From contig CAVOJZ010000002.1 of assembly GCA_963696395.1 (NCBI GenBank), forward strand, positions 720,619-784,618: a stretch of 64,000 bases of DNA. The letters are read 5' to 3'. Below are positions 7,879 through 33,555 of the stretch, piece after piece. The stretch is from an uncultured bacterium. GTDB taxonomy: Bacteria; Patescibacteriota; Minisyncoccia; UBA6257; 2-01-FULL-56-20. Within the stretch, counting starts at the first letter, position 1; each line of letters starts with the position of its first letter. A model generated the notes under the pieces. It had not been told where the DNA came from. It saw only the letters and a program-made list of their open reading frames with translations, and did no database searches. Both the position numbers and the translations under genes were made by a program.

Positions 7879-8858
7879 CATTGATTTCGCCAATGAAAAA
7901 ATATTTAATCGGATGTTGTGCGGCAGCCGCTCTCGCGATCCCTCTCTTTGTAAATGCCGCACAGATCTATCTCGACCCCGCAACGGGAAAATTCCCTCCG
8001 GGAGTAACGTTTGCGGTTGATGTCCGCTTAGATAACCAAAACCAATGCATAAACGCGGCGGAAGTGGATCTTTCGTATCCTCCGAGTATGCTTCAGGCGG
8101 TCGGCGCAAGCGACGGTGATTCAATTTTTTCTTTATGGGTGAAGCCGCCGACGATATACTCCGACTATGGTCTTGTATCGTTTGTTGGGGGATTACCGGG
8201 TGGTTACTGCGGCCGCGTTTCCGGAGATCCAAGCTTGAGCAATAAACTTGCAACCATCTATTTCCGTTTTCCAACGTCAAGCTCGCCGGTTGCTTCGACA
8301 ACCATTCTTCAAAGCGTCCACCTTTCTTTCATTAGCAGCACGCAAGCCGTGGTTGACGATGGCCTCGGCACATTTGCCGTTTTGAAGACGGGTGGAGCAA
8401 CCTATACGCCACAAGCGTTGAAAGGCCAGTACGTTTCGCTGAATGCTCTGAATGATGCGATCGTGGACGATACGACACCACCGGAGCCATTCACGGTGGG
8501 CATCTATCGGGATCCATCACTTTTTAGCAACCAATGGTTTGCGGTGTTTTCGACCGTAGATAAGCAAACCGGTATTGACCATTATGACGTTGCCGAAGTT
8601 CCAATTCCGCAATTAAGTCAGGATCAGAGCCAATGGAATTGGGTTCGCGCCGTCAGCCCGTACCTCATCAAAAACCAAAATCTGAACGAGGTGATCGCTG
8701 TACGCGCAGTAGACGTTGCCGGGAATACCCGGGTTGAGCAATCAACGCCACCGCCGGCGCCAAAACTTAACAACTGGCAGATGGCAATACTTCCATACCT
8801 GGCAATCATTGGAGTCGCAGGCTTCACGATCTTCCAGATCATCATTCACCTCTTCTGA
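7872..8858 (+). CDS. membrane-anchored cohesin-like domain protein
   Basis: Signal peptide. The N-terminal domain (IYLDPATGKFPPGVTFAVDVRL...SIFSLWVKPP...) is homologous to the cohesin-like domain of 23408..25186. A C-terminal TM helix is present (AILPYLAIIGVAGFTIFQIIIHLF). Confidence 0.6.
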   Translation: MVTLISPMKKYLIGCCAAAALAIPLFVNAAQIYLDPATGKFPPGVTFAVDVRLDNQNQCINAAEVDLSYPPSMLQAVGASDGDSIFSLWVKPPTIYSDYGLVSFVGGLPGGYCGRVSGDPSLSNKLATIYFRFPTSSSPVASTTILQSVHLSFISSTQAVVDDGLGTFAVLKTGGATYTPQALKGQYVSLNALNDAIVDDTTPPEPFTVGIYRDPSLFSNQWFAVFSTVDKQTGIDHYDVAEVPIPQLSQDQSQWNWVRAVSPYLIKNQNLNEVIAVRAVDVAGNTRVEQSTPPPAPKLNNWQMAILPYLAIIGVAGFTIFQIIIHLF

Positions 8859-13262: not shown

Positions 13263-13691
13263 ATGCGCGAAACAATTAATTTAGCGGAACAGCACGACGT
13301 ACCACGGCCCCGTCGGGGGAGAATGCTTATCACGGTGATCGTTGTCGTTGCGGTTGTTCTACTTGGATGGTGGTACGTGAATGGCGCAACGCAATGGAAA
13401 GCGGTTTTTCTTACGAACAACCAGGTATACTTTGGACATTTTTGGGATGTTCCGTTTGCCGGGACGATTACCCTCAGGAACGTGTACTATCTCCAATTTT
13501 CAACACCGGGTCAACAACTCGACACTCAGGATCAATCGCAGCTGAAGCTGGTGAAACTTGGAAGTGAGATCCACGGTCCGACCGATGAGATGGTGATCCC
13601 TATATCGCAGGTGCTTTTCTGGGAGACACTCCGCTCCGATAGTGCGATCGTAACGACCATCAAGAATGGGCAGACTCAAACCACTCCATAA
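13263..13691 (+). CDS. small membrane-anchored hypothetical protein
   Basis: N-terminal TM segment (MLITVIVVVAVVLLGWWYV) and a 142-aa frame sitting inside the operon. Confidence 0.5.
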   Translation: MRETINLAEQHDVPRPRRGRMLITVIVVVAVVLLGWWYVNGATQWKAVFLTNNQVYFGHFWDVPFAGTITLRNVYYLQFSTPGQQLDTQDQSQLKLVKLGSEIHGPTDEMVIPISQVLFWETLRSDSAIVTTIKNGQTQTTP

Positions 13692-15015
13692 ATTAATCAT
13701 CGCGGTGCTTTCGGGGGCGTTGGTTGCGGCGCTCGCAATGCCATTGGTTCGCACATTTGCCGATACGGCTTCGAGCACCGATTTTATGATTCAGGATGGG
13801 TTTGTTGGATTTTTTGGCGGCTATGCCTCATCAACCGATTTTCAGGTTGTGAGCGGCGGTGCGCCGATCATCAATTCGAATGCAACCAGCTCGGATTTTA
13901 ATTCGAATACCGGACCTGTGAATTACGGCGATTTTTCCCCGGTATCGCAAACGTGGCGGTGGTACGGCGATCCGAACGATGAAACGCCGACCAGTTCGCT
14001 TGCCGCAGAAAATACGGCGCCGTCGAATATTGCAAACGCCCAAATAATCAAACTACGGCTCAACATAAAGGAAACAAGCGGGATCATGGGAAGCGACAAT
14101 CTCAAGTTCCGGTTGGAGTACGCCGAGTCGTCAGATTTTACGGTCGCGCCCGGTTTTGTCGCCGAGGCGACGGGTTGCGGCGCTACGTCAACCTGGTGCT
14201 ATGCCACGAGCACCGGCGGCAATGATAATCAGATTATCTCGACCGCAATTCTTTCAACAAGCAACCCGTGCAGCGGAGGTGTCGGCAATGGTTGCGGCAC
14301 CCACAACACTTCGGGCATAAGTTCGGCAACGTCAACGCAGAACGCCGGCGCGACAACGGAATATGAATTTACCATCGTCGCATCGGGCGCCGGCAGCGGC
14401 AACACGTATTTCTTCCGTCCGATAAATACCGCAGACGGAAGCGTTGTTCCGCTCGGGGCCACATCGAGTTATCCAAGCCTTGTGACGCAGGGAGCAACAC
14501 TTACCTTTAGCGTGAGCGGTTTGCCACAAAGCACGAGTACGAACGGCGTCACGACAAATGTTTCAACGACGGCAACGGGGATACCATTCGGCACGCTTGC
14601 GCTTGGCACGAGCACGATCGGAGCGCAACGGTTGTACGTTTCAACCAACGCGGCGAACGGATATGAATTGTATACCGAGCAGGATCAACCGCTCATGGAC
14701 TCGCGCGGCGACCTCGTCCCCGGAGTTTTAGGGACCAACGCCAGTCCGCTTCCGTGGGCAAACGCCTGCGCCGCAACTTCGACGGGATGTTATGGCTATC
14801 ACGCCGGCAGTTCGGTGCTTTCAGGCGGTTCAACGCGGTTCGCCGCCGCCGACAGTTACGCCGCGCTCACCTCGACGATCGCCGAAGTCGGCTATAGCGG
14901 ATTTCCTATAACGAGCAGCACGATGGACATGGTCTACCGTGTCCAGGTCGCGGGAACTCAAGTGACCGGAGCGTATCAGGACAATCTCATGTATGTCGTC
15001 GCACCATCATACTGA
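13666..15015 (+). CDS. secreted surface protein carrying the shared C-terminal module (WxL-like)
   Basis: Signal peptide. C-terminal region (GIPFGTLALGT...NGYELYTEQDQ...QDNLMYVVAPSY) aligns with the C-termini of 17150, 18417, 26980 and 33629. Confidence 0.65.
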   Translation: MGRLKPLHKLIIAVLSGALVAALAMPLVRTFADTASSTDFMIQDGFVGFFGGYASSTDFQVVSGGAPIINSNATSSDFNSNTGPVNYGDFSPVSQTWRWYGDPNDETPTSSLAAENTAPSNIANAQIIKLRLNIKETSGIMGSDNLKFRLEYAESSDFTVAPGFVAEATGCGATSTWCYATSTGGNDNQIISTAILSTSNPCSGGVGNGCGTHNTSGISSATSTQNAGATTEYEFTIVASGAGSGNTYFFRPINTADGSVVPLGATSSYPSLVTQGATLTFSVSGLPQSTSTNGVTTNVSTTATGIPFGTLALGTSTIGAQRLYVSTNAANGYELYTEQDQPLMDSRGDLVPGVLGTNASPLPWANACAATSTGCYGYHAGSSVLSGGSTRFAAADSYAALTSTIAEVGYSGFPITSSTMDMVYRVQVAGTQVTGAYQDNLMYVVAPSY

Positions 15016-16007
15016 TGAATAAAAGATTTTTTCATACTATAGCGTTCGTGATGGTTGCGATCGGCCTTGTCGTCCGCGGATTTTTTATGTCCGAGGCGTT
15101 TGCCGCGGATCTCGTGGTCTCGCCGGCGGTGATAGACGGGAACGGCGTGCCCAACGACATTTTGAATTACACCGTTACGGTTGTTAACACAACAGGACAA
15201 CAGCAAAATGTATTTGCCTCGGTCTATGAACTCACGCCAAGCGGAACGCAGCCATTTACCGACCCTTCCGATTCAAATCGGCCGGCGTTGCTCTCCGATT
15301 GGATCAGCGTCACGCGCGGCGCGTTGTTGTTTGCTCCGCACGAGTCAAAGACATTGCCGGTTACCGTACAAATCAATCCATATGCGCTCGCGGGGGATTA
15401 CCACGCCGTCATTGCCTTCGTTGAGGGGGGCACCCGTGATGATGCCGAAACGCATCTTGTTGGTGCGCCGCAAGCCATCGTCAACATGTCCGTTGCATCA
15501 AATCTGGTGGCGAGCCTGAAGATCGACGCATTCGCTACAGCAAAAGGATTTTATTCCGGATTTCCGGTGGACTTTAATTACACAATCGAAAATTCCGGCG
15601 ATGTCGCCGCAACGCCATCGGGCCAGATCATGCTCTACGACCGTCTGGGGCACGAAATCGGTTCTCTTGACGCGAATCCGAACGGGATAAGCATTGCCCC
15701 GGGAGAAAAAAAATCGTTTAGCGCGACATGGTCGAGCGGCAGCGGACTTGGACAATATAAAGCGGTCCTTGATATTTCATACGGAGCGGACAATGATAGA
15801 CTTGAAAACACGGCGATCGTCTGGGTTTTGCCGTGGAAAAAACTCGCGATTATATTCGGCTCGCTCTTCGTTGTTATGATTATTACGGCCCTATGGTTGC
15901 ACCATGAATATGCGAAGCGCCATCATCGCCGCCGCCGCGCGCTCGAAGCCTTGTTAAAAAGGAAAACCATGGAGCCAATTCTCGACCTTCGCCATCCCCA
16001 TGAATAA
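15015..16007 (+). CDS. cell-surface protein with signal peptide plus C-terminal TM anchor (DUF916/CscA-like architecture)
   Basis: Signal peptide and an approximately 250-aa beta-rich ectodomain. A C-terminal TM (LAIIFGSLFVVMIITALWL) is followed by a basic tail (HHEYAKRHHRRRRA). Paralog of 16000, 19610 and 35578. Confidence 0.65.
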   Translation: MNKRFFHTIAFVMVAIGLVVRGFFMSEAFAADLVVSPAVIDGNGVPNDILNYTVTVVNTTGQQQNVFASVYELTPSGTQPFTDPSDSNRPALLSDWISVTRGALLFAPHESKTLPVTVQINPYALAGDYHAVIAFVEGGTRDDAETHLVGAPQAIVNMSVASNLVASLKIDAFATAKGFYSGFPVDFNYTIENSGDVAATPSGQIMLYDRLGHEIGSLDANPNGISIAPGEKKSFSATWSSGSGLGQYKAVLDISYGADNDRLENTAIVWVLPWKKLAIIFGSLFVVMIITALWLHHEYAKRHHRRRRALEALLKRKTMEPILDLRHPHE

Positions 16008-17073
16008 AAAAGTTGCCATCATCTCTCTTGTCTTTGTCTGCTCAGCGCTGCTTTTGCCTGCGGTGTCGTTTGCGCAATCCGCGGATTCAACTTCACTCAC
16101 CATCACGCCGCCGTTTTTCGAATTGAATGTGAGCCCCGGTGATTCGTGGTCGAGTTCGATCAGAGTGGTAAATACCAACGCAACCGATATTCAGGTTCAC
16201 GCGATCGTCATGGGCTTCGCTGCATCCGATGCCGAAGGGCACGGAAACTTTATCCCATTGTCCAATTTGTCGGGGGATAGCGATGCGCTCGCGAACTGGG
16301 TCACCGTTTCACCCTCCCCGATCACTGTGCCCCGGGGTGGTGCAACGGACGTCCCGTTTTCGATTTCGGTTCCATCGGACGCGTCACCCGGAGGCCATTA
16401 TGGCGCGATACTTATCGGAACGGGGGCGCCGACGGTTGCTTCGGGGACGTCGCAGGTCGGCGTGAGCAGCTATATTTCTGCACTGATTTTCGTGAGCGTC
16501 GCGGGCAATATAGTTAATTCGGCGCAAATCACTCAATTTTCAACAGACAAGGGTGCTTATCAGGCGCCGGATGTTCATTTCGCGGTCCGTGTACAAAATG
16601 ACGGCAATGTTCATGTGCGACCGGTTGGGTTCATTCAAATATACAACGCGTTCGGCAAGAAACGAGGTGAAATTCCTATAAATCAGTCGGGTAGTCTCGG
16701 ATATATCCTGCCGTCGAGCACCCGTGAATTCGATGTTGAATGGCAGGGAACGCCGAGTTTGCTTGATATCGGACCTTATACTGCCGTCGTGAGCCTTGCC
16801 TATGGGGAAAACGGCATCGACAGTATCTCGGAAACCGTTGGATTTTGGATTGTGCCAATTTGGCAGATTTTGGAGGTTCTTTTTGTGGCTTTGATCATCT
16901 CACTACTCTTTATATTTATCGTTCGTCGCTCCGTCCGGAAAATGCTTGCAAATGAGATGTCGCGATACGGCGAAATTCCGCCGTCGCAGCCAGAGCAAAA
17001 GAAAGCTTCCGAAAAAAAGAATAATTTATCATCCGGCGGGCACGACTCCGGAACTATCGACTTGAGAAGATAG
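16000..17073 (+). CDS. cell-surface protein, paralog of the anchor family (DUF916-like)
   Basis: Signal peptide. Conserved motif SPGGHYGAILIGTGAP. C-terminal TM (ILEVLFVALIISLLFIFIV) plus basic tail. Confidence 0.7.
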   Translation: MNKKVAIISLVFVCSALLLPAVSFAQSADSTSLTITPPFFELNVSPGDSWSSSIRVVNTNATDIQVHAIVMGFAASDAEGHGNFIPLSNLSGDSDALANWVTVSPSPITVPRGGATDVPFSISVPSDASPGGHYGAILIGTGAPTVASGTSQVGVSSYISALIFVSVAGNIVNSAQITQFSTDKGAYQAPDVHFAVRVQNDGNVHVRPVGFIQIYNAFGKKRGEIPINQSGSLGYILPSSTREFDVEWQGTPSLLDIGPYTAVVSLAYGENGIDSISETVGFWIVPIWQILEVLFVALIISLLFIFIVRRSVRKMLANEMSRYGEIPPSQPEQKKASEKKNNLSSGGHDSGTIDLRR

Positions 17074-17149: not shown

Positions 17150-18286
17150 ATGCGGATTAATCGATCAACTTTAAGAAAAGACTTGTCTGTTTCGGCGGCG
17201 CTCGGTCTTTTTATCAGCATCACCTTGTGGACTGCCGGTTTTCAATATTTACCGATTGTTCATGCGGCGAGCCTTACTTCGGTGAAAGATACAATGAGCG
17301 ACTCCCGCCCCGGATATCCGGCTAACCACACGATCGTCTTCACGAATCCGTCTTCAACAGCAGCCGGACTCACCATTTCATACACCTTCGACCCCAATAC
17401 CAGCGCATTCGGCAGTGTCACTTCAACGAGTATTGCGAACGTTACTTCCACCGGTATGACCATCGTCTCCACCTGTTCGGCCGGCACCAACAACGTGAGT
17501 ATGGCAACAACCTCATATAACGTGCTCACCTTCACGGTCTGCGCGAGTAATACGGTTGCATCCGGAACGGTGACTCTGAAGATTCTCGGCAACACCATCA
17601 CGAACCCCACGAGCACCGGATCCTACATCATCCGCATCGGCGGCACCCAGCCGAGCTCGGCTGATACGCGTGTTGCCATTGTGAACGGCGTCAATGTGAC
17701 GGCCGCGGTTGCAACCACCTTCACTTTCACGGTTTCTCCGCTTGCGACATCAACCACACTCCTGAATAATGCGACGACGACGGGTAATGACACATCAACC
17801 ACTCTGCCGTTCGGAACCATCAGCCCGAATACCCACAACGAACTCGGTCAACAGCTCAACGTCACAACGAATGCTTCAAACGGGTTCGCGGTTACCATGC
17901 ATGAAGACCAGGACATGACAAGCAACAAGGGGAATGTCATCCACGTCTTCTCAAACGGAAACGCAACTTCAACGCCGAGCCCGTGGACTTCACCGCAGAA
18001 CATCATTAACCAGTCATGGACCTACGGTCATGTCGGTATCACGAGCGACGACGTGAGCAGCAGCATCGTCGGAGGACCGAATTTCGGAACCAGCACCCCG
18101 CTCTACGCAGGAAGTTTCAATCCGACATCAACGCTCACGGTATTCCTCTGGAATGGCCCGGCCGATGGCGTCACCCAGAATGTGGGAGCCGCGAAAGTTG
18201 CGGTGCGTATCGAAATCAGCCCTCTGCAGGCAGCCGCAAACGACTACACGAACAACCTAATCTACGTAGCGACGCCGGTGTTCTAA
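17150..18286 (+). CDS. secreted Thr/Ser-rich surface protein, tandem duplicate copy A (WxL-like C-terminus)
   Basis: Signal peptide. The mature region is about 99% identical to 18417..19553. Ends ...ANDYTNNLIYVATPVF. Start taken at the Met of MRINRSTLRKDL, by analogy with copy B. Confidence 0.7.
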   Translation: MRINRSTLRKDLSVSAALGLFISITLWTAGFQYLPIVHAASLTSVKDTMSDSRPGYPANHTIVFTNPSSTAAGLTISYTFDPNTSAFGSVTSTSIANVTSTGMTIVSTCSAGTNNVSMATTSYNVLTFTVCASNTVASGTVTLKILGNTITNPTSTGSYIIRIGGTQPSSADTRVAIVNGVNVTAAVATTFTFTVSPLATSTTLLNNATTTGNDTSTTLPFGTISPNTHNELGQQLNVTTNASNGFAVTMHEDQDMTSNKGNVIHVFSNGNATSTPSPWTSPQNIINQSWTYGHVGITSDDVSSSIVGGPNFGTSTPLYAGSFNPTSTLTVFLWNGPADGVTQNVGAAKVAVRIEISPLQAAANDYTNNLIYVATPVF

Positions 18287-19556
18287 GGATTAGGGGGTGT
18301 TGACAACAATGGAAATAGGTTGTGGATAACTACCCTTGAAATGTTGACAACTTGTTATGATACAATTATTACAAATGGAAATCGGGTCGATTTCCTACAT
18401 AAAATAAAATAAAAATATGTTAGCCAACTCGCGGAAACTCAGAAAAGACTTAACGGTCGCAATCACCTTCGGACTTCTCATCAGCCTTATCACGTGGTCG
18501 GTTGGTTTTCGATATCTCCAAACTGTGCATGCGGCCAGTTTGACGTCGGTTAGCGACACTTTGAGCGACTCCCGCCCCGGATATCCGGCTAACCACACGA
18601 TCGTCTTCACGAATCCGTCTTCAACAGCAGCCGGACTCACCATTTCATACACCTTCGACCCCAATACCAGCGCATTCGGCAGTGTCACTTCAACGAGCAT
18701 CGCGAACGTTACTTCCACCGGTATGACCATCGTCTCCACCTGTTCGGCCGGCACCAACAATGTGAGTATGGCAACAACCTCGTATAACACGCTCACCTTC
18801 ACGGTCTGCGCGAGTAATACGGTTGCATCCGGAACGGTGACTCTGAAGATTCTCGGCAATACCATCACAAACCCCACGAGCACCGGATCCTACATCATCC
18901 GCATCGGCGGCACCCAGCCGAGCTCGGCCGATACACGTGTTGCCATTGTGAACGGCGTCAATGTGACGGCCGCGGTCGCAACCACCTTCACTTTCACGGT
19001 TTCTCCGCTTGCGACATCAACCACGCTCCTGAATAATGCGACGACGACGGGTAATGATACCTCAACCACCCTGCCGTTCGGAACCATCAGTCCGAATACC
19101 CACAACGAACTCGGTCAACAGCTCAACGTCACAACGAATGCCTCAAACGGGTTCGCGGTTACCATGCATGAAGACCAGGATATGACGAGCAACAAGGGGA
19201 ATATCATCCACGTCTTCTCGAACGGAAACGCAACTTCAACGCCGAGCCCGTGGACTTCACCGCAAAATATTATCAACCAGCCATGGACCTACGGCCACGT
19301 CGGTATCACGAGCGATGACGTGAGCAGTACTTTGGTGGGTGGACCAAACTTCGGAACCAGCACCCCGCTCTACGCAGGAAGTTTCAATCCGACATCAACG
19401 CTCACGGTATTCCTCTGGAATGGCCCGGCCGATGGCGTCACCCAGAATGTGGGAGCCGCGAAAGTTGCGGTGCGTATCGAAATCAGCCCTCTGCAGGCAG
19501 CCGCAAACGACTACACGAACAACCTAATCTACGTAGCGACGCCGGTGTTCTAAGGA
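17270..19556 (+). repeat. direct tandem duplication of about 1.02 kb (two gene copies, about 99% nucleotide identity) separated by a unique spacer
   Basis: The coding sequence GAGCGACTCCCGCCCCGGATATCCGGCTAACCACACGATCGTCTTCACG... through ...ATCTACGTAGCGACGCCGGTGTTCTAAGG occurs twice. Only a handful of substitutions separate the copies. Confidence 0.85.
18417..19553 (+). CDS. secreted Thr/Ser-rich surface protein, tandem duplicate copy B
   Basis: The nucleotide sequence from about 18530 to 19556 is near-identical to 17270..18290. The signal peptide and upstream region diverge. Confidence 0.7.
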   Translation: MLANSRKLRKDLTVAITFGLLISLITWSVGFRYLQTVHAASLTSVSDTLSDSRPGYPANHTIVFTNPSSTAAGLTISYTFDPNTSAFGSVTSTSIANVTSTGMTIVSTCSAGTNNVSMATTSYNTLTFTVCASNTVASGTVTLKILGNTITNPTSTGSYIIRIGGTQPSSADTRVAIVNGVNVTAAVATTFTFTVSPLATSTTLLNNATTTGNDTSTTLPFGTISPNTHNELGQQLNVTTNASNGFAVTMHEDQDMTSNKGNIIHVFSNGNATSTPSPWTSPQNIINQPWTYGHVGITSDDVSSTLVGGPNFGTSTPLYAGSFNPTSTLTVFLWNGPADGVTQNVGAAKVAVRIEISPLQAAANDYTNNLIYVATPVF

Positions 19557-19609: not shown

Positions 19610-20716
19610 ATGGATATATTACGATCGGTGGGCGGATGGGCGGGTCGAGTGGCAGCTGGAGCAGCAATGGTTTTTGTTGCGAGCGTCGTCTTCCCCGCAG
19701 GTGTTTCGCATGCTCAGACCGCCGTTTCAATGAAAATTCAACCGGCGCTTTTCGAGCAAACGGTTAATCCCGGCGATAAATTTTCGACATCATTAACAGT
19801 CACAAACCCGGGAACCACCGCGAAGCAATTCTCGGTCGGTGTGCAGGATATCACCGGAATCGATCAGGCAGGTGAGCCGATCTTCAGCTCATCATCCGTT
19901 CCGGAATATGGCGTAAGCTCATGGGTGCAGCTTGGCGATACGGCAATAACGATTCCCGCGGGAGGGAGCGTTACCGTGCCATTCACGATAATGGTTCCGA
20001 AGAACGCCGGCCCCGGAGGGCATTACGGTGCGATTTTCATTTCCTCCGGCGCGACCCGGCCGCAATTTAACGGAACAGGACTTGGCTATGAAGTTGGTTC
20101 GCTCATTGAGCTTCGGATCGCCGGTGACGCGACCGAACAGGCGGAGATCAAAGAATTTTCAACCGACAAATCGTTGTATCAAACCCCGAATGTGACTTTT
20201 ACCGCCTCCGTCGCAGATGAGGGCAATATTCTTCTTCAGCCGCGGGGTCCGATCGATATCGTAAATATGTTTGGGCAGAAAGTGGGAACCGTTGTCATAA
20301 ACGACCAGGGTTCATCAATCTTCCCCGGCGATCAGCGCGCCTTCAATGTGACGTGGAACGGTGGCGGATTCATGTTTGGCCAATACAGCGCCGTTATGAC
20401 CTTGAATTATGGTGACACCGTAAATAAATCCATCTCGGCGTCATTGTCATTCTGGGTTGTTCCGATTATGCCGATCGTCGCTGTTCTCGCAAGCATCATA
20501 TTCTTTGTCCTGATATTCGTCTGGTCCGTTAAGGTGTATGTCCGCAAGCGCGTCCGATCCATGACCGGTGGTCGCCAGGAACGGTCATCTTCATCCGACG
20601 AAGAAACGTTGCTTTCGGGAGGCGGATTGCCACTCTCTCGCCTTGTATTCATCGTCATTGCGACCGCCATCTTCGCAGTCATTTTCTTGATCGCCCTATT
20701 CTTCTTCTTCGGATAA
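19610..20716 (+). CDS. cell-surface protein, paralog of the anchor family (DUF916-like)
   Basis: Signal peptide. Motif GPGGHYGAIFISSGATRP. C-terminal TM (IMPIVAVLASIIFFVLIFVW), a basic/Ser-rich linker, and a second hydrophobic segment at the very C-terminus. Confidence 0.7.
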   Translation: MDILRSVGGWAGRVAAGAAMVFVASVVFPAGVSHAQTAVSMKIQPALFEQTVNPGDKFSTSLTVTNPGTTAKQFSVGVQDITGIDQAGEPIFSSSSVPEYGVSSWVQLGDTAITIPAGGSVTVPFTIMVPKNAGPGGHYGAIFISSGATRPQFNGTGLGYEVGSLIELRIAGDATEQAEIKEFSTDKSLYQTPNVTFTASVADEGNILLQPRGPIDIVNMFGQKVGTVVINDQGSSIFPGDQRAFNVTWNGGGFMFGQYSAVMTLNYGDTVNKSISASLSFWVVPIMPIVAVLASIIFFVLIFVWSVKVYVRKRVRSMTGGRQERSSSSDEETLLSGGGLPLSRLVFIVIATAIFAVIFLIALFFFFG

Positions 20717-20723
20717 TAATTTC

Positions 20724-21095
20724 ATGAGAAAGCGGACGGTTTTGCTTCTCATCATGTTGGCGGGAGTCGCTTGTGTTTTCTTTTTTGTCGCTCGTGGGCG
20801 GGTTGCTTCACTTCCCAGCCTCATGGCGCAAATCGGCATAACGGTTGGCGTGGCACCGAATCCGTACAACACTTTAAACGATCAGCTTAATCAGGAACAG
20901 AATCAGCTGAATCAGCAGGCGGCCGATCTTGCGGCTCGCGAAGCGGCGCTCGCCAGTTCAACGGCCGCCGCCGATGCAGTTTCCTACACCGACTGGTATT
21001 TGAGTGCCGGGATTGCGGCCGTTGCGATTCTTGTTTCCCTGAATTTTTATCTTGATTGGCGGCGCGCCAAGCGGGAAGAAACACCTAAAGTGTAG
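20724..21095 (+). CDS. small membrane protein with a coiled-coil loop
   Basis: Two TM helices flank the loop NDQLNQEQNQLNQQAADLAAREAALAS. Confidence 0.5.
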   Translation: MRKRTVLLLIMLAGVACVFFFVARGRVASLPSLMAQIGITVGVAPNPYNTLNDQLNQEQNQLNQQAADLAAREAALASSTAAADAVSYTDWYLSAGIAAVAILVSLNFYLDWRRAKREETPKV

Positions 21096-21118: not shown

Positions 21119-22804
21119 GTGAAGCATCGACTCCAAAGATTGAGTATTCTCACGGCGGCGTGCCTCGCCATTTTTTCTTTTGCGAAAGCGCTTCCGGTCG
21201 CGCATGCTTCCCAATTGTCGTTTGTGAGCGATACCATCAACGACTCCAGATTATCATGGCCCACCAACCACCAGATCGTTTTTAAGGTCCCGAGCGGCAT
21301 ACCGGCCTCCGGCCAGATTGTTGTCGCGTTTGAAGGGGCGCCGTTTTTCATCGATCCCTCGTTCAGCTATACCGACGTGGATCTTGCCGTATCCACGGTT
21401 TCGCCAACTTCCGGCTTTGTCGAAAGACCTCTCGCGGGCATCCCCGGTTTTTTAAATGACGGCGTTGCCATAACTCCAACGACGGGTCCCATCACTATCA
21501 CATTGGCATCCAGCGTGGGTATTCCAGCGGGTGCGTATGTTCGAATTATGCTTGGCACGAATGCTCCCGGCGGTGTGTACCAGATTACCAATCCGGCAAC
21601 GACGGCGTCCTATCGCATTCTTCTTAATACTTTCGATCAACTCGGAGGCAATCTTGATTATGGTGCGGCAATGGTTGCAATTCTGCCCGCGATTGGTGTT
21701 AGCGCAAACACCGATGTGGTAAATCCACCAGTACTATCTAACGGCATGCCCTCAGGAACGATCCCTTCGAACGTTTCGGGAGTGCTCGTTTCTTTCAATA
21801 CCGATACGTACGCGACGTGTCACTATGCAACGTCGTCCGGAATTTCCTATGACGATATGACAAACGTCACGGCCGACGATGAGCTCGGCACAACGCATAC
21901 TTTTAATGTCGACGGCATCACGCAAGGGACGACCTATACGTTTTATGCCCGGTGCGAAGACTTTGCAGGAAATAAAAATCCGAGTGATTATATTATTTCT
22001 TTTACCGCCGGTGATCCAACAGGCGCTCCCGGTTCGGGAGGAGGCGGAGGGGGAGGCGGCGGCGCACCATATCCACCCGGCGCGCCAGGGCCCTCGCTCA
22101 CGTTGAGTGGTTTTACCGTGCCCAACGCAACCATCGTCGTCTTGCAGGACGGATCGAAGATCGCGCCAGCCACCACTGCGGATAATGGGGGATCATTTTC
22201 AGTGAGTATCGCATCTCTCCCGCAAGGAACTTATTCCTTTACCATTCAGGCATTGGGAACCGGCTCAACCGTGATTTCTTCGTACACGGCGACCATAACG
22301 CTCATTACCGGAACGTCGAATAGTATTACCGGAATCGTGATGCCCCCGTGGATCGGATTCGCGACAAGCTCGGTAGCCCTTAATAAATTATTTGCAATGT
22401 CGGGTTTGGCCGAGCCTTCATCAACTATCGATATTGTCGTTACGAGTCAGGCGGGAGTGCGAGGCATTTTCGAGGCAACAACTTCCGCAAATCAAAGCGG
22501 CGCATGGGCGTATTCGCTTTCGACGGCCGGATTCCCGATGGACACGTACCAGGTGAAAGCGCGAGCATTCATAACCGGGCTCGCTGCAAGCAATTTTTCC
22601 ACGATATCCTTCCTTGGCGTCGGTGAAACTCCGGTGCCGAAACTGAAAATAGGGGATTTAAACGGTGATAACAAAGTGAATCTTGTGGACTTCTCAATCA
22701 TGCTCGCCCATTGGGGGACGAGCTATGCCCCGGCCGACTTAAATGACGATGGCATCGTCGACCTTCCGGATTTAAGCATTTTACTTTTCAACTGGACGGG
22801 CTGA
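21119..22804 (+). CDS. secreted surface protein with a C-terminal dockerin module
   Basis: Signal peptide. The N-terminal domain is related to 17150/18417 (SDTINDSRLSWPTNHQIVFKVP versus SDSRPGYPANHTIVFTNP). A poly-Gly linker is present. The C-terminus carries two dockerin Ca-binding loops: DLNGDNKVNLVDFSIML...DLNDDGIVDLPDLSILLFNW. Confidence 0.75.
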   Translation: MKHRLQRLSILTAACLAIFSFAKALPVAHASQLSFVSDTINDSRLSWPTNHQIVFKVPSGIPASGQIVVAFEGAPFFIDPSFSYTDVDLAVSTVSPTSGFVERPLAGIPGFLNDGVAITPTTGPITITLASSVGIPAGAYVRIMLGTNAPGGVYQITNPATTASYRILLNTFDQLGGNLDYGAAMVAILPAIGVSANTDVVNPPVLSNGMPSGTIPSNVSGVLVSFNTDTYATCHYATSSGISYDDMTNVTADDELGTTHTFNVDGITQGTTYTFYARCEDFAGNKNPSDYIISFTAGDPTGAPGSGGGGGGGGGAPYPPGAPGPSLTLSGFTVPNATIVVLQDGSKIAPATTADNGGSFSVSIASLPQGTYSFTIQALGTGSTVISSYTATITLITGTSNSITGIVMPPWIGFATSSVALNKLFAMSGLAEPSSTIDIVVTSQAGVRGIFEATTSANQSGAWAYSLSTAGFPMDTYQVKARAFITGLAASNFSTISFLGVGETPVPKLKIGDLNGDNKVNLVDFSIMLAHWGTSYAPADLNDDGIVDLPDLSILLFNWTG

Positions 22805-22844: not shown

Positions 22845-23411
22845 ATGAGCTCTTTCTACGAAAAATTATCGGTGAAATTTCAGGATGGCGGGATCTCGGC
22901 ACCCGGCACCGGCACCGCGCCCGCAAAAACGGTCACTTTTAATGCGACCGGAGACCGAACTTCGCCAAAAAAAGCTGACGTCCCAGCCGCAACTCCACCG
23001 ACTGACGTGACGCCGGACGGCGCCGACCCGATTGATGTCGACCTTTTTCAATCCGAAACGCGGACCGTTGTTTTTATGCAATTGAGTGGCATTCCGGCGA
23101 ATGAACTTGCGGTGACGGTAAGCGAGGAATCAAACACGATCATTGTTGAGGCAGCGCAAAAACGTCCGGGTCTGCCTCCGTTACCCGGCGCAAAAGAAGG
23201 GGAACCGCCAGAGAAAGGAATCTATGTTAAGGCGGAGGTAAAGTGGCGCTCGCTGTACCGCAAGATCTATCTCCCGGCACCGTTTGATATCAGCGAAGCG
23301 ACCGCCACGCTCGACAAGGGCGTGCTCATTATAGTGTTGCCGGCAAAACATCCGGGCGTCGGCAAAAAAATGGTGGTTCAGGAAATCCGGCACGATGAAC
23401 AGAAAAAATGA
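22845..23411 (+). CDS. Hsp20/alpha-crystallin domain protein
   Basis: Alpha-crystallin domain motifs: IDVDLFQSETRTVVFMQLSGIPANELAVTV.EESNTIIVEA ... YRKIYLPAPFDISEATATLDKGVLIIVLPAK. The stop overlaps the start of the cohesin-like gene (ATGA). Confidence 0.7.
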   Translation: MSSFYEKLSVKFQDGGISAPGTGTAPAKTVTFNATGDRTSPKKADVPAATPPTDVTPDGADPIDVDLFQSETRTVVFMQLSGIPANELAVTVSEESNTIIVEAAQKRPGLPPLPGAKEGEPPEKGIYVKAEVKWRSLYRKIYLPAPFDISEATATLDKGVLIIVLPAKHPGVGKKMVVQEIRHDEQKK

Positions 23412-25186
23412 GGAAAGGGACATATCTTATTCTCGTCGCCCTTGGGTGGCTCATCGTTAGTCCGGGCATTTTTAATATCGCGGCGGCGCAAACGGCAGGA
23501 GGAAACGCCGCGCTCTCACTTTCACCTTCGAGCGGCTCGCACGCCGTCGGAGAAACGTTTACGGTGAGTGTCATGTTGGATTCCGGCGGCGGCGTGGGCG
23601 TAAATGCCGCCAATGGCGAATTGAGTTTTGACCCGACTCTCCTTGCGGTGCAAAGCGTTTCAAAAGACAATTCTATTTTTAATCTTTGGACGAGCAACCC
23701 TTCATTCTCGAATTCGCAGGGCACCGTTGATTATAGCGGCGGCAGCAACAATGCTTACACCGGAAATTCCGGGGATGTGGTTGATGTGACGTTTAAAGCG
23801 CTCGGTGCCGGCTCTGCGAATATAAAATTTGCATCGGCAAGCGCGCTTGCAGCCGATGGCCAGGGAACAAACGTCCTCGGCGGCACGACGGGCGCCGCCT
23901 ATACCATCGGAGGGGCGGCCGCAAAGCCGGCGGTGCCGGCATCGAATCCCGGATCCTCGCAGTCGCTCGCAAGCCCGGCGCAGGCTCCGTTCACGGTGAC
24001 GATCGCGGTCACATCTCCGACGCATCCGGATCCAAGTGCGTGGTACAACAACAACAGCCCGAATTTCACATGGGTACTCACGCCTGACGTTGCAGGCGTA
24101 AGCACTGCGCTCGATCAGAACCCGGGCACATATCCGAAGCGATCTTCTGCCGGCTTACTGTCGTCCAAGCAATATTCCGCCGTGCCGGAGGGGACATCGT
24201 ATTTCCATGTGCGTTTTGAAGATGCCCTTGGCGATTGGAGCGACCCAGTCAACTATCAGGTAAACATCGACGTGACGCCGCCGTTGCCCTTTACGGTGAG
24301 CGCTCTCACGGGTGCGGGTGTGAGCGGCAGGACCGAATTGATGTTCAATGCGACCGATACCGTTTCAGGGATCGATCATTACGTTGCAACGTTCGACGGA
24401 ACCATGTCGTCAACGATTGCATTGTCGGATGTCCAGAACGGCATATATACTGCTCCGCCGCTCCTGGCCGGCAAACATATTGTTGAAATAAGTGCATTCG
24501 ACAAGGCAGGCAATTATACGAGTGAAAATACCGAATTCACGATTTCCGGAGTTACGATGCCGGAGATCACTAATTTCCCAGCGACCGTCATCGAGAAATC
24601 TCCGATTGTTTTCGAAGGCATCGCCGACAGCGGGGCAAATGTTACGGTTGATATCAACGATGGCACCGGGAAAACGGTATCCGAGGGCAAGATGGTTGCC
24701 GATGAAACGGGCCATTGGCTGTACGCCGTCGAGAGCGGACTTTCAACCGGCAAGTATGCTCTCGGCGTTTCGATGGTTACAACGCAGGGTGCGTCCGTGA
24801 GTTCGACCGACAAATTGTTCCTCAATGTCATCATGGCCCCGTTCCTGGATCGATTCGGTTGGATCCTCATCATCCTTTTGCTGTCGTGCATCGGTGGACT
24901 TCTAACGTACGGCATGTACAAGAAGAAGATCCACGAAATGCAGCTCGCGCTTGCGAAACGGGAAAACGAAGAAGCGCGCGAAAAAACCAGGGCAGTGTTT
25001 GAAGCGCTGCGTGAGGAAATGGATGACCAGATCAGCCATATGGAAGGCGGTGCGGCGCAGGCGCAAGGTGAGGCCAAGCTTGAACCAGAGCGCGTCCTTG
25101 ATGAAGTGCGCAATGCGCTGGTGATTTCTGAGACGACCATTCAGAAGGAGATCGAGGACGTCAATAAGGCTCTCAATGAAGAATAA
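23408..25186 (+). CDS. membrane-anchored cohesin-like domain protein with a cytoplasmic coiled-coil tail
   Basis: Signal peptide. Cohesin-like N-terminal domain (SLSPSSGSHAVGETFTVSVMLDSGGGVGVNAANGELSFDP.LLAVQSV...SIFNLWTSNP...VVDVTFKALGAGSANIKF), then Ig-like domains. TM helix (FGWILIILLLSCIGGLLTYGMY), then a charged coiled coil of about 90 aa. Confidence 0.7.
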   Translation: MRKGTYLILVALGWLIVSPGIFNIAAAQTAGGNAALSLSPSSGSHAVGETFTVSVMLDSGGGVGVNAANGELSFDPTLLAVQSVSKDNSIFNLWTSNPSFSNSQGTVDYSGGSNNAYTGNSGDVVDVTFKALGAGSANIKFASASALAADGQGTNVLGGTTGAAYTIGGAAAKPAVPASNPGSSQSLASPAQAPFTVTIAVTSPTHPDPSAWYNNNSPNFTWVLTPDVAGVSTALDQNPGTYPKRSSAGLLSSKQYSAVPEGTSYFHVRFEDALGDWSDPVNYQVNIDVTPPLPFTVSALTGAGVSGRTELMFNATDTVSGIDHYVATFDGTMSSTIALSDVQNGIYTAPPLLAGKHIVEISAFDKAGNYTSENTEFTISGVTMPEITNFPATVIEKSPIVFEGIADSGANVTVDINDGTGKTVSEGKMVADETGHWLYAVESGLSTGKYALGVSMVTTQGASVSSTDKLFLNVIMAPFLDRFGWILIILLLSCIGGLLTYGMYKKKIHEMQLALAKRENEEAREKTRAVFEALREEMDDQISHMEGGAAQAQGEAKLEPERVLDEVRNALVISETTIQKEIEDVNKALNEE

Positions 25187-26979: not shown

Positions 26980-29517
26980 ATGACCCGCTATTTTTTAGTA
27001 TTTCTCATACTTGGCCTGTTTTTTTTCGTTCCACACGCCGAAGCGGCAACCTGGTATAACACGGCTTGGGGTTATCGAAATTTATTGACGATCAACGCTT
27101 CGAAGGTTTCATCGTCAAGCGTCACGACCTCAACTTACGTCAATTTTCCTGCCTTGGTGAGTTTTGCCACGAGCAGCCAGCTTGCATCGGCGGCGCAAGC
27201 GAGCGGTACCGACATTCTTTTTACCGACAGTGACGGCGCAACCTTATTGAACTTCGAAATCGAGCACTATACGAGTAGCACGGGAGAACTTGAAGCGTGG
27301 GTAAAAATACCGCTGGTTTCAACTTCCACGAATACAAATTTTTATATGTATTACGGGAATCCTTCCGCGACATCCAGTTTGCAAAACGTGACCGGAACAT
27401 GGAATAGCTATTACACATCGGTTTGGCACTTTCCGAGTATCAACGGCACCACAACCTTTTCGGCAAAAGACTCATCTGGAGACGGTAATAACGGCACCAT
27501 CGTCGGCGGTGCGACGAGTACGGTTGGGCAGATTGACGGCGCGGCAAATTTTAACGGGAAAAGCCAAGATATTACAACTCCCTATGTGCAAGTTTCGTCA
27601 ACTGCTTACACCGTTGAAGCCTGGATAAAAATTCCTTCGACTGCAACGACAACTCAAGTGATAGTAAATGACCGAGGCAGCGGCGCTGGCCACTCGCTCA
27701 CCCTCGCCCTCGACGGCAACCTTGCCTGCGGCAGCACATCCTGTGGCGGCACGCTTGGCAGCGTGGGAAGTCCGACCGGTAAGCTGATGTTCGGTGACGA
27801 CTCAAATAACATCTGGATCGGCACTGAGGCAAGCAACACAGCGATCAATGACGGTAACTGGCATTTCGTCGCCGGATCATGGACAGCGACTTCCGGCGTG
27901 GCCATTGCTCCAAGCCAGTTTAAGGTTTATGTCGACGGTGCGATACCGGTGACAGCGACATCAGGCAATACGGGAACCGACAGTTCGCCGCTGACCGGTC
28001 TTGCAAGTACTACGATCGCATACCATGCGCCATGGACCGCCTACTTCACGGGTGCGATCGACGAATTGCGCATCGCAGAAAAAAATTTGTCGGCCGCATG
28101 GATTGCGACCGAGTATAACAATCAAAAATCGCCCGCAACGTTCATCACGACCGCTCCGCAGGAGACCCCGCCGGCTTTCACGCAGTCCGATTTTCGATGG
28201 TTTGCAAACATTGCTTCGAGTTCCGTTGGATCGCCGCTTGCTGCGCAAAACACAACGACAACGGCGCAGTTGGTAACCAGCTCGACTTTTCGATTACGCA
28301 TGCTCATACGGGTGACCGGCAGTCAGCTCAATTCCAGTTCGCAAGCGTTCAATCTCCAATATGTGGATGCCGGGACCGGCAGTTGCACAGCTCCATCCGG
28401 GGGAAATCCGGCGAGTTATTCAAATATTTCAACATCAACCGGATTATTCCAGTATTTCAGCAATGCAGGCGTCACGGACGGTGGCCCTCTCGTGCCGACG
28501 AGCACCGATCCGGTTGACGGAACGAGCACAGTCGTCAACGAAACCTACGACCAATCCAATCCGTATTCGGATTCCCAGGGAGCGATACCGGCGACCGCGG
28601 ATGGAAAATGGGATTTTTCGCTTACCGACAGCGGGGCAAAAGTTGGGACAACCTATTGCTTCCGCGGGGTTACGGCGAGCGGCACTGCGTTTTCTTCTTA
28701 TGCCGTTTATCCAACGGTTGTGATTGGTAACGTCGCTCCAGCGGTTAGTGCGGTCACCTTGAATGGGAATAACAGCATTACCCTCATCGTCGCAACAACC
28801 ACTTTGATCCAGGCAACGGGGACGGTGAGTGACGGCAATGGATATACTGACATCGCGACAACCACTGCGGTAATCTATCGAACGAGCCTTGGCCAAAATT
28901 GTTCGCCTGATAATAACGACTGCTATATAACACCTGCTTGTTCTTTGAGCTCGTGCTTCGGGACGACGTGCAATGCCACGTGCGGCGCCCAGATATGGTA
29001 TTTTGCCCAACCAACCGACTCGGGAACACCGTGGTCGGGCGATTCATGGTCGGCGGCGATAAACGCAACCGATTTTTCAAATGCCACGGGGACAGCGACA
29101 AGCACCGGCGTCCAGCTTTTGTCGCTTCTCGGACTTCAGGTTGCGTCGTCAATCAGTTACGGATCTTTTATCCCCGGACAAACTATGGCTTCGCTCACGG
29201 TACCGGTCGCCATAACCTCAGTCGGTAATGTTTCCTTAAATGTCACATTGTATGGCACTAATATGACGAGCGGGGCAAACAGTGTTGCAGTTGGAAATCA
29301 ACACTACGCAACATCGGTCCTGTCTTTTGCGGCGGGCACTGCGTTGCTCGCCAATCCCGGCACGACTGTGGCGCTTGCAATACCCAAAACAACCTCGACG
29401 AATCCTGGAAGTACGCTTATAGATTGGGGAATTGCCATCCCGAGCCCCCAGGCGTCAGGGAATTTTACGGGAGTAAATACGTTTATCGGCGTGGAGAATT
29501 CGCTGCCGTGGCCATAA
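26980..29517 (+). CDS. secreted protein with DUF2341-like and LamG/concanavalin-A-like lectin domains and the shared C-terminal module
   Basis: Signal peptide. DUF2341-like N-terminus (WYNTAWGYRNLLTIN...TNFYMYYGNPSA). Laminin-G-like beta-sandwich (TVEAWIKIPS...GNWHFVAGSW...FKVYVDGA). The C-terminus aligns with 33629 (…GVNTFIGVENSLPWP). Confidence 0.7.
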   Translation: MTRYFLVFLILGLFFFVPHAEAATWYNTAWGYRNLLTINASKVSSSSVTTSTYVNFPALVSFATSSQLASAAQASGTDILFTDSDGATLLNFEIEHYTSSTGELEAWVKIPLVSTSTNTNFYMYYGNPSATSSLQNVTGTWNSYYTSVWHFPSINGTTTFSAKDSSGDGNNGTIVGGATSTVGQIDGAANFNGKSQDITTPYVQVSSTAYTVEAWIKIPSTATTTQVIVNDRGSGAGHSLTLALDGNLACGSTSCGGTLGSVGSPTGKLMFGDDSNNIWIGTEASNTAINDGNWHFVAGSWTATSGVAIAPSQFKVYVDGAIPVTATSGNTGTDSSPLTGLASTTIAYHAPWTAYFTGAIDELRIAEKNLSAAWIATEYNNQKSPATFITTAPQETPPAFTQSDFRWFANIASSSVGSPLAAQNTTTTAQLVTSSTFRLRMLIRVTGSQLNSSSQAFNLQYVDAGTGSCTAPSGGNPASYSNISTSTGLFQYFSNAGVTDGGPLVPTSTDPVDGTSTVVNETYDQSNPYSDSQGAIPATADGKWDFSLTDSGAKVGTTYCFRGVTASGTAFSSYAVYPTVVIGNVAPAVSAVTLNGNNSITLIVATTTLIQATGTVSDGNGYTDIATTTAVIYRTSLGQNCSPDNNDCYITPACSLSSCFGTTCNATCGAQIWYFAQPTDSGTPWSGDSWSAAINATDFSNATGTATSTGVQLLSLLGLQVASSISYGSFIPGQTMASLTVPVAITSVGNVSLNVTLYGTNMTSGANSVAVGNQHYATSVLSFAAGTALLANPGTTVALAIPKTTSTNPGSTLIDWGIAIPSPQASGNFTGVNTFIGVENSLPWP

Positions 29518-31027: not shown

Positions 31028-31028
31028 T

Positions 31029-32339: not shown

Positions 32340-32349
32340 TTTTTATATC

Positions 32350-33555
32350 ATGAGAGCAATTGATGCATTAAAACTTTCGACGAGAATGTTCAAGACGAAT
32401 CCTGCGAGGACCTGGCTTACGATTCTCGGCATGGGCGTCGGCACGTCGGCCGTTGTGATGCTCGTCGGTCTTGGTTTTGGCTTGCAAAACATTCTTCTCG
32501 AGAAAATTGTTTTCGGGGACACCTTGCTCAGCCTCACGGTGACCAATCCGCCCTCGAACGCGGTCACGCTGAACGATGCGACCCTCGCCGAATTCAAAGC
32601 GATACCAAACGTGAACGATGTTTCACCGCTCGCGGATTTTTCTTCCGTTGTGACGTTCAACGGGTTGAGCGCCAACACGGATCTTCAGGGCGTCCAGGCG
32701 TCATATTTTAAATATGCCGGCATCGCGATGGCGGCAGGGAAGTCATTCACAGACAGTCCCGGTGACGGAAACGATATTATTCTTTCGAGCGCCGCACTTC
32801 AGTTATTCGGTGTCACCGACCCGAATCAGATTTTAGGGAAACCGGTATCATTCCGTGTCATCGCGTCGGCGGTTGGAACGTCGGGCTCGGCTGACCAGGT
32901 TCCGTTAAACGGCAATTTTACCGTGACCGGCGTGACGAACGATGCAGCGGCAATTTATGCCATGATTCCGCTTGCGACGCTTTCGTCGCAAGTCGGCATC
33001 ACCTCCTATGATAAGGTTCAGGTCCGCGTATCGGCTAGCGGTTTTTTGAACGACGTGCAAACGGCAATTGTCGCGGCTGGATTCGTTGTTTCTGCACTTT
33101 CAAAGACCGTCGATCAGGCAAATCAAATTTTTAGCGGTGTCCAGGCGGTGCTTGCCGGCTTCGGTGGTATCGCTCTCGTCGTCTCCGCAATCGGTATGTT
33201 TAACACCATGACCGTTACGCTGCTTGAGCGTACAAACGAAATTGGTGTTATGCGCACGCTCGGTGCGTCTCCGCGCGACATCCAGATTCTGTTTTTGTCG
33301 GAAGCGGTTGTTGTGGGATTCCTTGGGGGAATGACTGGCATGGCTATGGGCATCGCCGGAGGTCTCATCATAAATTACCTTCTCAATCTTGTTGCTGCGC
33401 ATTATGGGGGGGCAGCAGTAGCCCTTTTTGCCTTCCCGGGAACGTTTTTGGGGTTTATCACATTCTTTTCCGCAATCGTCGGCTTTATCACAGGAATTTT
33501 CCCTGCTCGCCGCGCGTCATCAATTAGCCCACTTGAGGCCATCCGCTACAAGTAA
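32350..33555 (+). CDS. ABC transporter permease, FtsX/MacB family
   Basis: N-terminal TM, a large periplasmic loop, and a C-terminal FtsX domain with three TM segments (MRTLGASPRDIQILFLSEAVVVGFLGGMTGMAMGIAGG). Start moved to the Met at 32350, after the upstream stop. Confidence 0.8.
   Translation: MRAIDALKLSTRMFKTNPARTWLTILGMGVGTSAVVMLVGLGFGLQNILLEKIVFGDTLLSLTVTNPPSNAVTLNDATLAEFKAIPNVNDVSPLADFSSVVTFNGLSANTDLQGVQASYFKYAGIAMAAGKSFTDSPGDGNDIILSSAALQLFGVTDPNQILGKPVSFRVIASAVGTSGSADQVPLNGNFTVTGVTNDAAAIYAMIPLATLSSQVGITSYDKVQVRVSASGFLNDVQTAIVAAGFVVSALSKTVDQANQIFSGVQAVLAGFGGIALVVSAIGMFNTMTVTLLERTNEIGVMRTLGASPRDIQILFLSEAVVVGFLGGMTGMAMGIAGGLIINYLLNLVAAHYGGAAVALFAFPGTFLGFITFFSAIVGFITGIFPARRASSISPLEAIRYK

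Follow-up and report, generated by a model that had tools for sequence, protein, structure and literature searches.

An old tandem pair of surface-protein genes in a Patescibacteria genome, probably kept alike by gene conversion

Two neighbouring genes, here called A and B (win_A and win_B in trees), lie in a 64-kb stretch of a contig from a Patescibacteria (Paceibacteria/Parcubacteria) bacterium (CAVOJZ010000002.1; the whole stretch analysed is referred to as the window) and are closely similar over most of their length while differing strongly at their 5′ ends. The question raised by this locus is whether one gene is a new copy of the other or whether two old genes have been made alike. Our preferred interpretation, to which we give a probability of about 0.78, is that A and B form an old tandem pair whose similarity is secondary and would reflect recurrent gene conversion under purifying selection. 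A first-pass annotation of the sequence had offered either a very recent duplication or ongoing conversion between surface-protein paralogues; the former does not stand up to comparison with relatives, whereas conflict between regional trees, steps in synonymous divergence within the gene and lineage-specific boundaries of the identity tracts argue for recurrent conversion between old tandem paralogues. Conversion as a process is already textbook, but the protein family on which it acts is uncharacterised, and our literature search found no paper on this family nor on DUF916/WxLIP proteins in Patescibacteria.

The tandem pair and the age of its duplication

A and B lie head to tail as a direct repeat of the whole gene, with a start-to-start spacing of 1267 nt and no indels as judged by repeat search and ungapped comparison, and the repeat is far beyond chance. 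The head-to-tail duplication described in the first-pass annotation is therefore confirmed, as two intact open reading frames (ORFs) of 378 codons (Table 1). A mechanical ORF list starts A at the GTG at 17090, but the ATG at 17150 is colinear with that of B and is the start of the public gene call P0001, which is 100 % identical to A. The high-identity block had been placed at 17270..18290 and 18530..19556 with about 99 % nucleotide identity; on recounting, it runs from 17295 to 18289 against 18562 to 19556 and contains 38 mismatches in 995 nt (96.2 % identity), 32 of them at third codon positions. Its first 136 nt (17295..17430) and its terminal 207 nt (18083..18289) are identical in the two copies, the 207-nt run having a permutation P of 0.003–0.005. 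At the 1267-nt offset, background identity is 0.13–0.27, rising to 0.43–0.73 across 17150–17300 (0.43, 0.57, 0.63, 0.73 and 0.67 in successive 30-nt steps, then 1.0), staying at 0.73–1.0 as far as 18289 and thereafter returning to 0.2–0.37. The mature proteins, thought to be separated by about six changes, differ at seven residues (K46S, M49L, V125T, V263I, S289P, S305T and I306L), five of which lie inside the block. The signal-peptide regions are not unrelated, as had been supposed, but diverged, colinear homologues of the same length (59 % nucleotide identity over codons 1–40, 21 of 40 residues identical) with a common pattern MxxNxxxLRKDL and a VHA↓AS cleavage motif. The 5′ flanks of A and B are indeed unrelated, with a local alignment score of 10 against 42–90 for orthologous spacers. 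Antisense ORFs of 118–162 aa inside A and B (e.g. 18395..18883 and 17260..17616, both on the minus strand) share in the duplication; the simplest view is that these are shadow ORFs, and we did not count them as genes.

Synonymous divergence (dS) and the ratio of nonsynonymous to synonymous divergence (dN/dS) between A and B were estimated by the Nei–Gojobori method for separate codon regions. Over codons 1–39 dS is 2.56 (dN/dS 0.154), over codons 40–57 it is 0.93 (0.113) and over codons 58–378 it is 0.14, with a dN/dS of about 0.07, the value that the first-pass annotation had suggested calculating; divided differently, dS is 1.63 for codons 1–57, 0.08 for codons 58–154 and 0.17 for codons 155–378. 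It thus changes 10- to 20-fold within the gene, and between genomes it is 1–3. A step of this kind implies separate histories for the two parts of the gene, and relaxed selection on the signal peptide cannot explain it.

Relatives were compared through 100 fetched loci (1.21 Mb in total), designated by L numbers, among which L001 (OY970358.1) is from the closest genome in the GTDB set (81 % protein identity), L080 and L086 are metagenome contigs of relatives, and L062, L077 and L040 represent distant lineages. No sequence from the same species was found in the metagenome scan, all matches being at most 77 % nucleotide-identical over the gene. Two tandem copies are present at the syntenic locus in L001, L080 and L086, whose genes diverge from those of the window by about 24 % of nucleotides; A and B are 96 % identical to each other, and either one is about 76–80 % identical to the L001 or L080 copies. 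One copy is present in L083/L084 (82 %) and in L002–L006 (about 70 %), and three in L040. The spacer between A and B aligns with the spacers of L080, L001 and L086, local alignment scores among these four being 42–90 as against 6–14 for unrelated flank pairs, and this orthology implies that the tandem arrangement is ancestral to these lineages despite the coding divergence.

The 5′ ends of the genes can also be matched between genomes. The window and L080 A copies have in common the residues SAALGL..WTAGF..SVKDTMSDS, and the corresponding B copies, together with the genes of L081 and L085, MLAN..LTVAI.FGLL..GFRYLQTVHA..SVSDTLSDS. Neighbour-joining trees with bootstrap were built separately for each codon region; that for codons 1–57 pairs win_A with L080_A (92.5 %) and win_B with L080_B, whereas that for codons 155–378 joins win_A to win_B and L080_A to L080_B, both at 100 %, inside a four-gene clade at 96 %. 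Taken together, the sequence comparisons indicate that at least four of the sampled lineages separated only after the gene had been duplicated. Three points weigh against our interpretation: the clade uniting the two B copies has a bootstrap value of just 62.5 %, on 171 nt; the 5′ regions of L001 and L086 cluster within each genome, so that ancestry there depends on the spacer; and conversion is deduced from comparative patterns rather than seen in reads or population data.

Two other histories of the pair were weighed against these data. A very recent tandem duplication that has had no time to diverge, one copy having had its 5′ end replaced or diverging rapidly, would account for the high identity over 995 nt and for the exact offset without indels. 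We regard this as highly improbable, in view of the mismatches and the dS of 0.14 within the block, the existence of L080 orthologues for both 5′ ends, the orthologous spacers in three other assemblies whose genes are so diverged, and the synonymous saturation of the first 57 codons, for which relaxed signal-peptide selection is insufficient. Alternatively, the gene could have been duplicated separately in every lineage, at times only in part, in place of one old duplication with conversion. Such events would fit the clustering of copies within genomes over most of the gene and the variation in copy number among lineages, and the spacers of L062, L077 and L040 are non-alignable, so duplication may well have occurred more than once across the class. 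However, the spacers of the window, L080, L001 and L086 are homologous, A- and B-specific 5′ ends are common to the window and L080, and a partial duplication cannot yield what is found in L080, namely two complete genes with distinct, orthologous 5′ halves and identical 3′ halves. For these lineages parallel duplication is therefore improbable.

Mosaic identity and gene conversion

Profiles of identity per 20 codons between the tandem copies of each genome revealed a different mosaic in almost every case. In the window, identity is 83–100 % over codons 58–378. The L080 copies are 100 % identical over codons 155–378 (dS 0.00) and 57–78 % identical over codons 20–154, with a dS of 2.5–3.3 over codons 1–154, and the L001 copies are 100 % identical in codons 20–77 and 195–294 and 56 % identical in codons 98–116. 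The L062 copies have a 601-nt identical 3′ run and a 5′ half of 40–58 % identity, and L077 shows a similar pattern. Tract boundaries thus differ among the window, L080, L001, L062 and L077, and the part homogenised in L080, L062 and L077 is essentially the C-terminal domain (C-domain) of the protein. No tract boundaries are seen in L086, where the copies are about 78 % identical throughout, with a dS of about 1. Purifying selection by itself is at odds with at least one of the results on divergence, regional trees and tracts.

Our current working hypothesis is that intrachromosomal gene conversion, by homologous recombination between the neighbours, overwrote codons ~50–378 of one copy with those of the other, and that renewed synonymous drift under strong purifying selection would account for the present dS and dN/dS of the tract. 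The identical 207-nt 3′ end would likely derive from a later, shorter event. As the tracts would end short of the 5′ end, each copy would retain its own signal peptide and upstream region, and the same process would recur across the family with varying boundaries, often confined to the C-terminal domain. Homologous recombination had also been expected to vary copy number at this locus, for which related species with one, two or three copies give indirect support; indeed, the single-copy L083 clusters with the two-copy L001 in regional trees (100 % support, codons 58–154), and its copy loss is consistent with unequal recombination.

A third rival is an assembly artefact, in which a single gene, or two strain variants, would have been laid out in tandem wrongly. 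The first-pass annotation had flagged the locus as a likely hotspot of assembly collapse, and this receives indirect support from relatives, whose metagenome assemblies break at the gene: L081 and L082 begin 94 nt before a B-type copy, L099 ends inside the gene and L100 starts inside it. The window copies, however, can be told apart, since they differ at their 5′ ends and at 38 scattered sites and have a unique spacer between them; both are located on a single 913,682-bp contig (NCBI/ENA), and the layout is found in four independent assemblies, one of which (OY970358.1) is titled ‘chromosome: 1’. That the pair is an artefact is hardly credible.

Two observations concern the assemblies of the relatives themselves. 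L099, on a contig of 78.5 kb, and L100, on one of 144 kb, were both recovered from sample Ga0182030, and the gene is divided between their ends, its 5′ part on one and its 3′ part on the other, which is what disruption of short-read assembly by identical tandem tracts would produce. At the syntenic locus of L085 (ENA contig_29522) there are many short ORFs of 60–250 aa in place of the 330–600-aa genes of relatives, a pattern more suggestive of an unpolished long-read assembly rich in frameshifts than of genuine gene decay.

Conversion between surface-protein paralogues is also the raw mechanism of programmed antigenic or phase variation, in which one gene is expressed and the other serves as a silent donor, and antigenic variation had been proposed for this locus. 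It is unsupported in the window genome. A and B are both complete, each with its own ATG, signal peptide and upstream region, so that neither bears the hallmark of a donor copy (a missing start, signal sequence or promoter), the mature proteins are seven residues apart at a dN/dS of 0.07, and a repeat search found no meaningful inverted repeats flanking the pair. A variation cassette is accordingly very improbable. The near-identity of the two mature proteins in the window genome suggests instead that the pair provides dosage, or differential regulation and secretion, and not antigenic diversity.

The spacer, the encoded protein and the surface gene cluster

A promoter and 5′ untranslated region belonging to copy B alone probably lie in the A–B spacer. 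A conserved block of the spacer comprises TGTGGATAA, TTGAAA, TTGACA, a candidate extended -10 element and a small hairpin. The two TTGACA motifs pointed out in the first-pass annotation are present, within GTTGACAAC at 18299–18307 and 18343–18351, but neither is convincing as a -35 box, the first being unconserved in relatives and the second lying only 11 nt from the conserved -10. A sigma-70 and terminator scan gave counts no better than those of shuffled sequences and called neither the TTGACA motifs nor the -10 candidate, and an Rfam scan of 16900–19800 found no RNA family. The terminator scan found no terminator-like site after copy A on the plus strand of the window, so that transcription of A may run on into B, besides the expression of B from its own promoter. 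In L062 (7706–7943), L077 (7673–7922) and L040 (10317–10738) a clear GC-rich hairpin and T-run resembling an intrinsic terminator comes after the first tandem copy, and the next copy has its own TATAAT-type promoter region.

Within the conserved block lies a DnaA-box-like 9-mer (TTATCCACA / TGTGGATAA), of which the window contains five copies against 0.34 expected, three of the five being intergenic and promoter-proximal. Across the 1.21 Mb of Paceibacteria loci it occurs 97 times, about 16-fold more often than composition-matched 9-mers (median 6, maximum 50). It is found in the spacers of L040, L045, L062, L077, L080, L001 and L086, and in several distant lineages precedes the second tandem copy or the third. 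These features suggest a widespread operator, for DnaA in the role of transcription factor or for some other regulator.

The protein encoded by A and B belongs to a family of 923 matches at E ≤ 1e-3, none of which bears a name other than ‘hypothetical’; wherever a source is named, it is a metagenome-assembled genome of Paceibacterota, Parcubacteria, Minisyncoccia or other Patescibacteria. Searches of A and B against Pfam and NCBIfam returned no family, Pfam searches with 73 family members at E values up to 5 returned scattered noise, including neither WxL nor Peptidase_M73, and a search of PDB sequences with the family profile returned no matches. The family alignment shows C109 and C131 to be invariant, with a conserved AHA↓A motif and a mature N-terminus that hardly varies. 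An AlphaFold2 model of copy B (predicted local distance difference test score, pLDDT, 91; for the C-domain alone pLDDT 91.6 and predicted template-modelling score 0.87) consists of a helix at residues 6–32 (the signal peptide), an immunoglobulin (Ig)-like N-domain at ~40–180 and a β-sandwich C-domain at ~185–378. Foldseek searches of the PDB with the whole model gave generic two-Ig-domain adhesins and integrins at template-modelling (TM) scores of about 0.2, and the N-domain resembled BslA (TM 0.69 on the target); a search of viral structures was uninformative. The top structural match of the C-domain was the TasA fibre 8aur_A (E 5.3e-4, probability 0.99, TM 0.37/0.32, root-mean-square deviation 11 Å), followed by the chaperone-usher pilins CfaB, FimG, FimA, the PapG pilin domain and CsuA/B (TM 0.27–0.5), and no WxL chain was among the 50 PDB matches listed. 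The mature protein also lacks a W-x-L motif, its tryptophans standing in WTS, WTY and WNG contexts.

The gene occupies a conserved position. Synteny of a seven-gene cassette extends to more than 50 fetched loci, at identities as low as 38 %, in the order C-domain paralogue, W1, W2, A/B gene (one to three copies), W3, small membrane protein, and N-module with dockerin (Table 1). Orthologues of the C-domain paralogue in other lineages are 435–1192 aa long with the shared domain always C-terminal, and Pfam searches of the large ones gave nothing beyond weak BNR. W1, W2 and W3 each have a hydrophobic stretch and basic tail near the C-terminus, indicative of a transmembrane helix, preceded in W2 and W3 by a signal peptide and Ig-like domains. 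PF06030 (DUF916) was matched at E ≤ 0.01 by 21 of 39 W2 orthologues (best E 9.6e-10) and by 36 of 42 W3 orthologues (best E 8.2e-9), and the top PDB sequence match of the W2 family profile was EfmWxLIP1 (E 0.079); phmmer searches of the PDB with single W2 and W3 sequences gave nothing useful. W2 and W3 are thus remote homologues of the WxLIP peptidoglycan-binding domain. The dockerin protein at 21119..22804 carries a Dockerin_1 domain at 23.6 bits, above the cut-off of 22.9; its match to the N-module is longer in other loci, e.g. query residues 6–219 in L003. The cohesin protein at 23408..25186 is its likely partner. The pair A/B and these neighbours lie inside an island of about 25 kb encoding secreted and surface proteins (window positions 5278–31027).

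Table 1. Positions in the window of the features discussed
Feature	Position	Strand	Evidence or remark
Copy A	17150..18286	+	378 codons: signal peptide, Ig-like N-domain, β-sandwich C-domain
Copy B	18417..19553	+	Same 90 % cluster as A
Homogenised (putatively converted) tract, copy A	17295..18289	+	Partner 18562..19556; dS 0.14, dN/dS 0.07
Homogenised (putatively converted) tract, copy B	18562..19556	+	Same comparison, offset 1267
Diverged 5′ part, copy A	17150..17294	+	Signal peptide and first mature residues; orthologous to L080 A copy; dS 1.6–2.6 against B
Diverged 5′ part, copy B	18417..18561	+	Orthologous to B copies of L080, L081, L085
A–B spacer	18287..18416	+	75–87 % identity over 92–124 nt with spacers of L080, L001, L086
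DnaA-box-like 9-mer TGTGGATAA, possible operator	18321..18329	+	Position conserved in L080, L001, L086
Copies of the 9-mer in the window	9519–9527 (-), 18321–18329 (+), 33576–33584 (+), 42191–42199 (-), 54116–54124 (-)		
Candidate extended -10 (TGaTACAAT)	18358..18366	+	Predicted; kept as TGATATAAT, TGGTACAAT, TGGTATGAT in L080, L001, L086
Small conserved hairpin, putative 5′ untranslated region of B	18377..18395	+	Weak; 6 pairs, one compensatory change, four-genome alignment
C-domain-only paralogue	13666..15015	+	BLASTP 30 % identity over residues 190–378 of B, E 3e-13
W1, membrane-anchored Ig-like protein	15015..16007	+	DUF11 24.8 bits, CARDB weak; syntenic in 51 loci
W2, WxLIP-like membrane-anchored protein	16000..17073	+	PF06030 WxLIP_PGBD 24.2 bits, cut-off 27.3
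W3, WxLIP-like membrane-anchored protein	19610..20716	+	PF06030 19.6 bits, cut-off 27.3
Small membrane protein	20724..21095	+	Syntenic in 40 loci; no Pfam/NCBIfam family
N-motif/domain paralogue, then Big domain and dockerin	21119..22804	+	BLASTP 44 %, residues 32–81 of B, E 5e-9
HSP20 gene	22845..23411		Within cluster
Cohesin-domain protein	23408..25186	+	Cohesin E 6.7e-10; syntenic in L080, L081, L083
Big_7/fn3/Big_13 protein with PG_binding_1 domain	5278..7878		Island member
Further cohesin protein	7872..8858		Island member
DUF2341/Laminin_G_3 protein	26980..29517		Island member
fn3/Pur_ac_phosph_N protein	29543..31027		Island member
MacB-type ABC transporter	31002..33555		After island

That A and B are surface-protein paralogues, as the first-pass annotation assumed, is a reasonable reading of the signal peptide, the β-sandwich domains and the surrounding surface gene cluster. 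As to what they do there, we tentatively suggest, by analogy and as a possibility rather than a probability, that the C-domain is a docking module by which the WxLIP-like anchors would hold an otherwise anchorless protein with its N-domain exposed. A docking role fits the alternative attachment of the N-module through a dockerin and the confinement of homogenisation in L062, L077 and L080 essentially to the C-domain, and conversion would then keep the docking module of the paralogues identical. Set against this role are the lack of any sequence match between the C-domain and WxL and of any WxL chain among the 50 structural matches listed, the fact that no W2 or W3 orthologue matched the second WxLIP domain (WxLIP_HBD, DUF3324), the scores of the window W2 and W3 below the Pfam cut-off, and the weak structural matches to TasA and pilins (TM 0.3–0.5), which point equally to a fibre subunit.

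A fibre subunit would be a component of a surface fibre or layer built by donor-strand exchange, with the mature N-terminus ASLTSVSDTLSDS as the donated strand and the W proteins as assembly or anchoring factors. Besides the best PDB matches of the C-domain, the nearly invariant mature N-terminus, which is common to the protein encoded at 21119, and a composition rich in Thr, Ser and Asn would suit such a subunit. We nevertheless consider it unlikely, as the TM scores are low (0.27–0.5), an hhalign comparison of the family profile with Bacillus subtilis TasA (an approximate sequence) gave a probability of 0.13, none of the 73 family members searched matches Peptidase_M73, and the predicted monomer places the N-terminal strand within the N-domain. 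If the docking interpretation is extended to the group as a whole, the cluster could be a Patescibacteria-wide display system resembling WxL/WxLIP, in which a new, unrelated β-sandwich docking domain is captured by WxLIP-like proteins; this broader proposal is speculative and, on balance, doubtful. Capture would possibly proceed by β-strand complementation, the nearest folds being those of strand-complemented pilins and TasA.

Significance and comparison with known systems

Judging the age of a duplication from the identity of its paralogues is misleading at the A/B locus, and short-read annotation and copy-number calls in these genomes are unreliable there. Our interpretation would mean that homologous recombination actively shapes surface-protein genes even in the very small, reduced genomes of Patescibacteria. 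The cluster itself is conserved and uncharacterised, with more than 900 family members, synteny in more than 50 sampled species and remote WxLIP homologues. It makes a plausible candidate for a role in displaying proteins on the cell envelope or in attachment to hosts, among bacteria with a poorly known surface biology. Were the display proposal correct, docking domains would stay identical while the N-domains on display, the signal peptides and the promoters drifted apart, and host-dependent bacteria could vary what they display yet remain attached to their own envelope.

RecA-dependent gene conversion causes concerted evolution of duplicated bacterial genes, for example tufA and tufB in Salmonella, and babA/babB and other Hop adhesins of Helicobacter pylori. 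The Hop genes combine diverging 5′ adhesin segments with 3′ membrane-anchor segments homogenised inside each strain. Unlike those genes, A and B are adjacent and in direct orientation, belong to an uncharacterised family in an ultra-small Patescibacteria host, and are known from comparative patterns and not from within-population switching. In other respects they are alike: paralogues of one genome resemble each other more than they do their orthologues elsewhere, the identical stretches form mosaics, conversion spares the 5′ and regulatory parts, and in several lineages (L080, L062 and L077) it is the C-terminal module that is homogenised.

The second comparison is with the WxL/Csc clusters of Firmicutes, which encode small WxL, large WxL and membrane-anchored WxLIP (DUF916-DUF3324-transmembrane) proteins (PMC10599100; PDB 9i25), and in which, according to a published proposal, the WxLIP inserts a β-hairpin into the WxL domain and so retains secreted WxL proteins at the cell surface (PMC10599100). 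As published, a WxL cluster must contain one or more WxLIP and two or more WxL proteins, a definition that does not embrace the A/B cluster. Sequence searches detect no WxL domain in A or B, which also lack a W-x-L motif, their neighbours have no DUF3324 match, and the cluster contains three WxLIP-like genes rather than one and a cohesin–dockerin pair. However, both kinds of cluster encode anchorless secreted proteins with a common C-terminal domain on short and long members, and the neighbours of A and B are membrane-anchored two-Ig-domain proteins matching PF06030. With TasA/camelysin fibres and chaperone-usher pilins, finally, A and B show no sequence relationship and a TM score of at most 0.5, their architecture has two domains, and family scans identified no SipW-type peptidase or usher in the cluster; what they do have in common with these fibre proteins is secretion, a conserved mature N-terminal strand and a C-domain whose best, albeit weak, structural neighbours they are.

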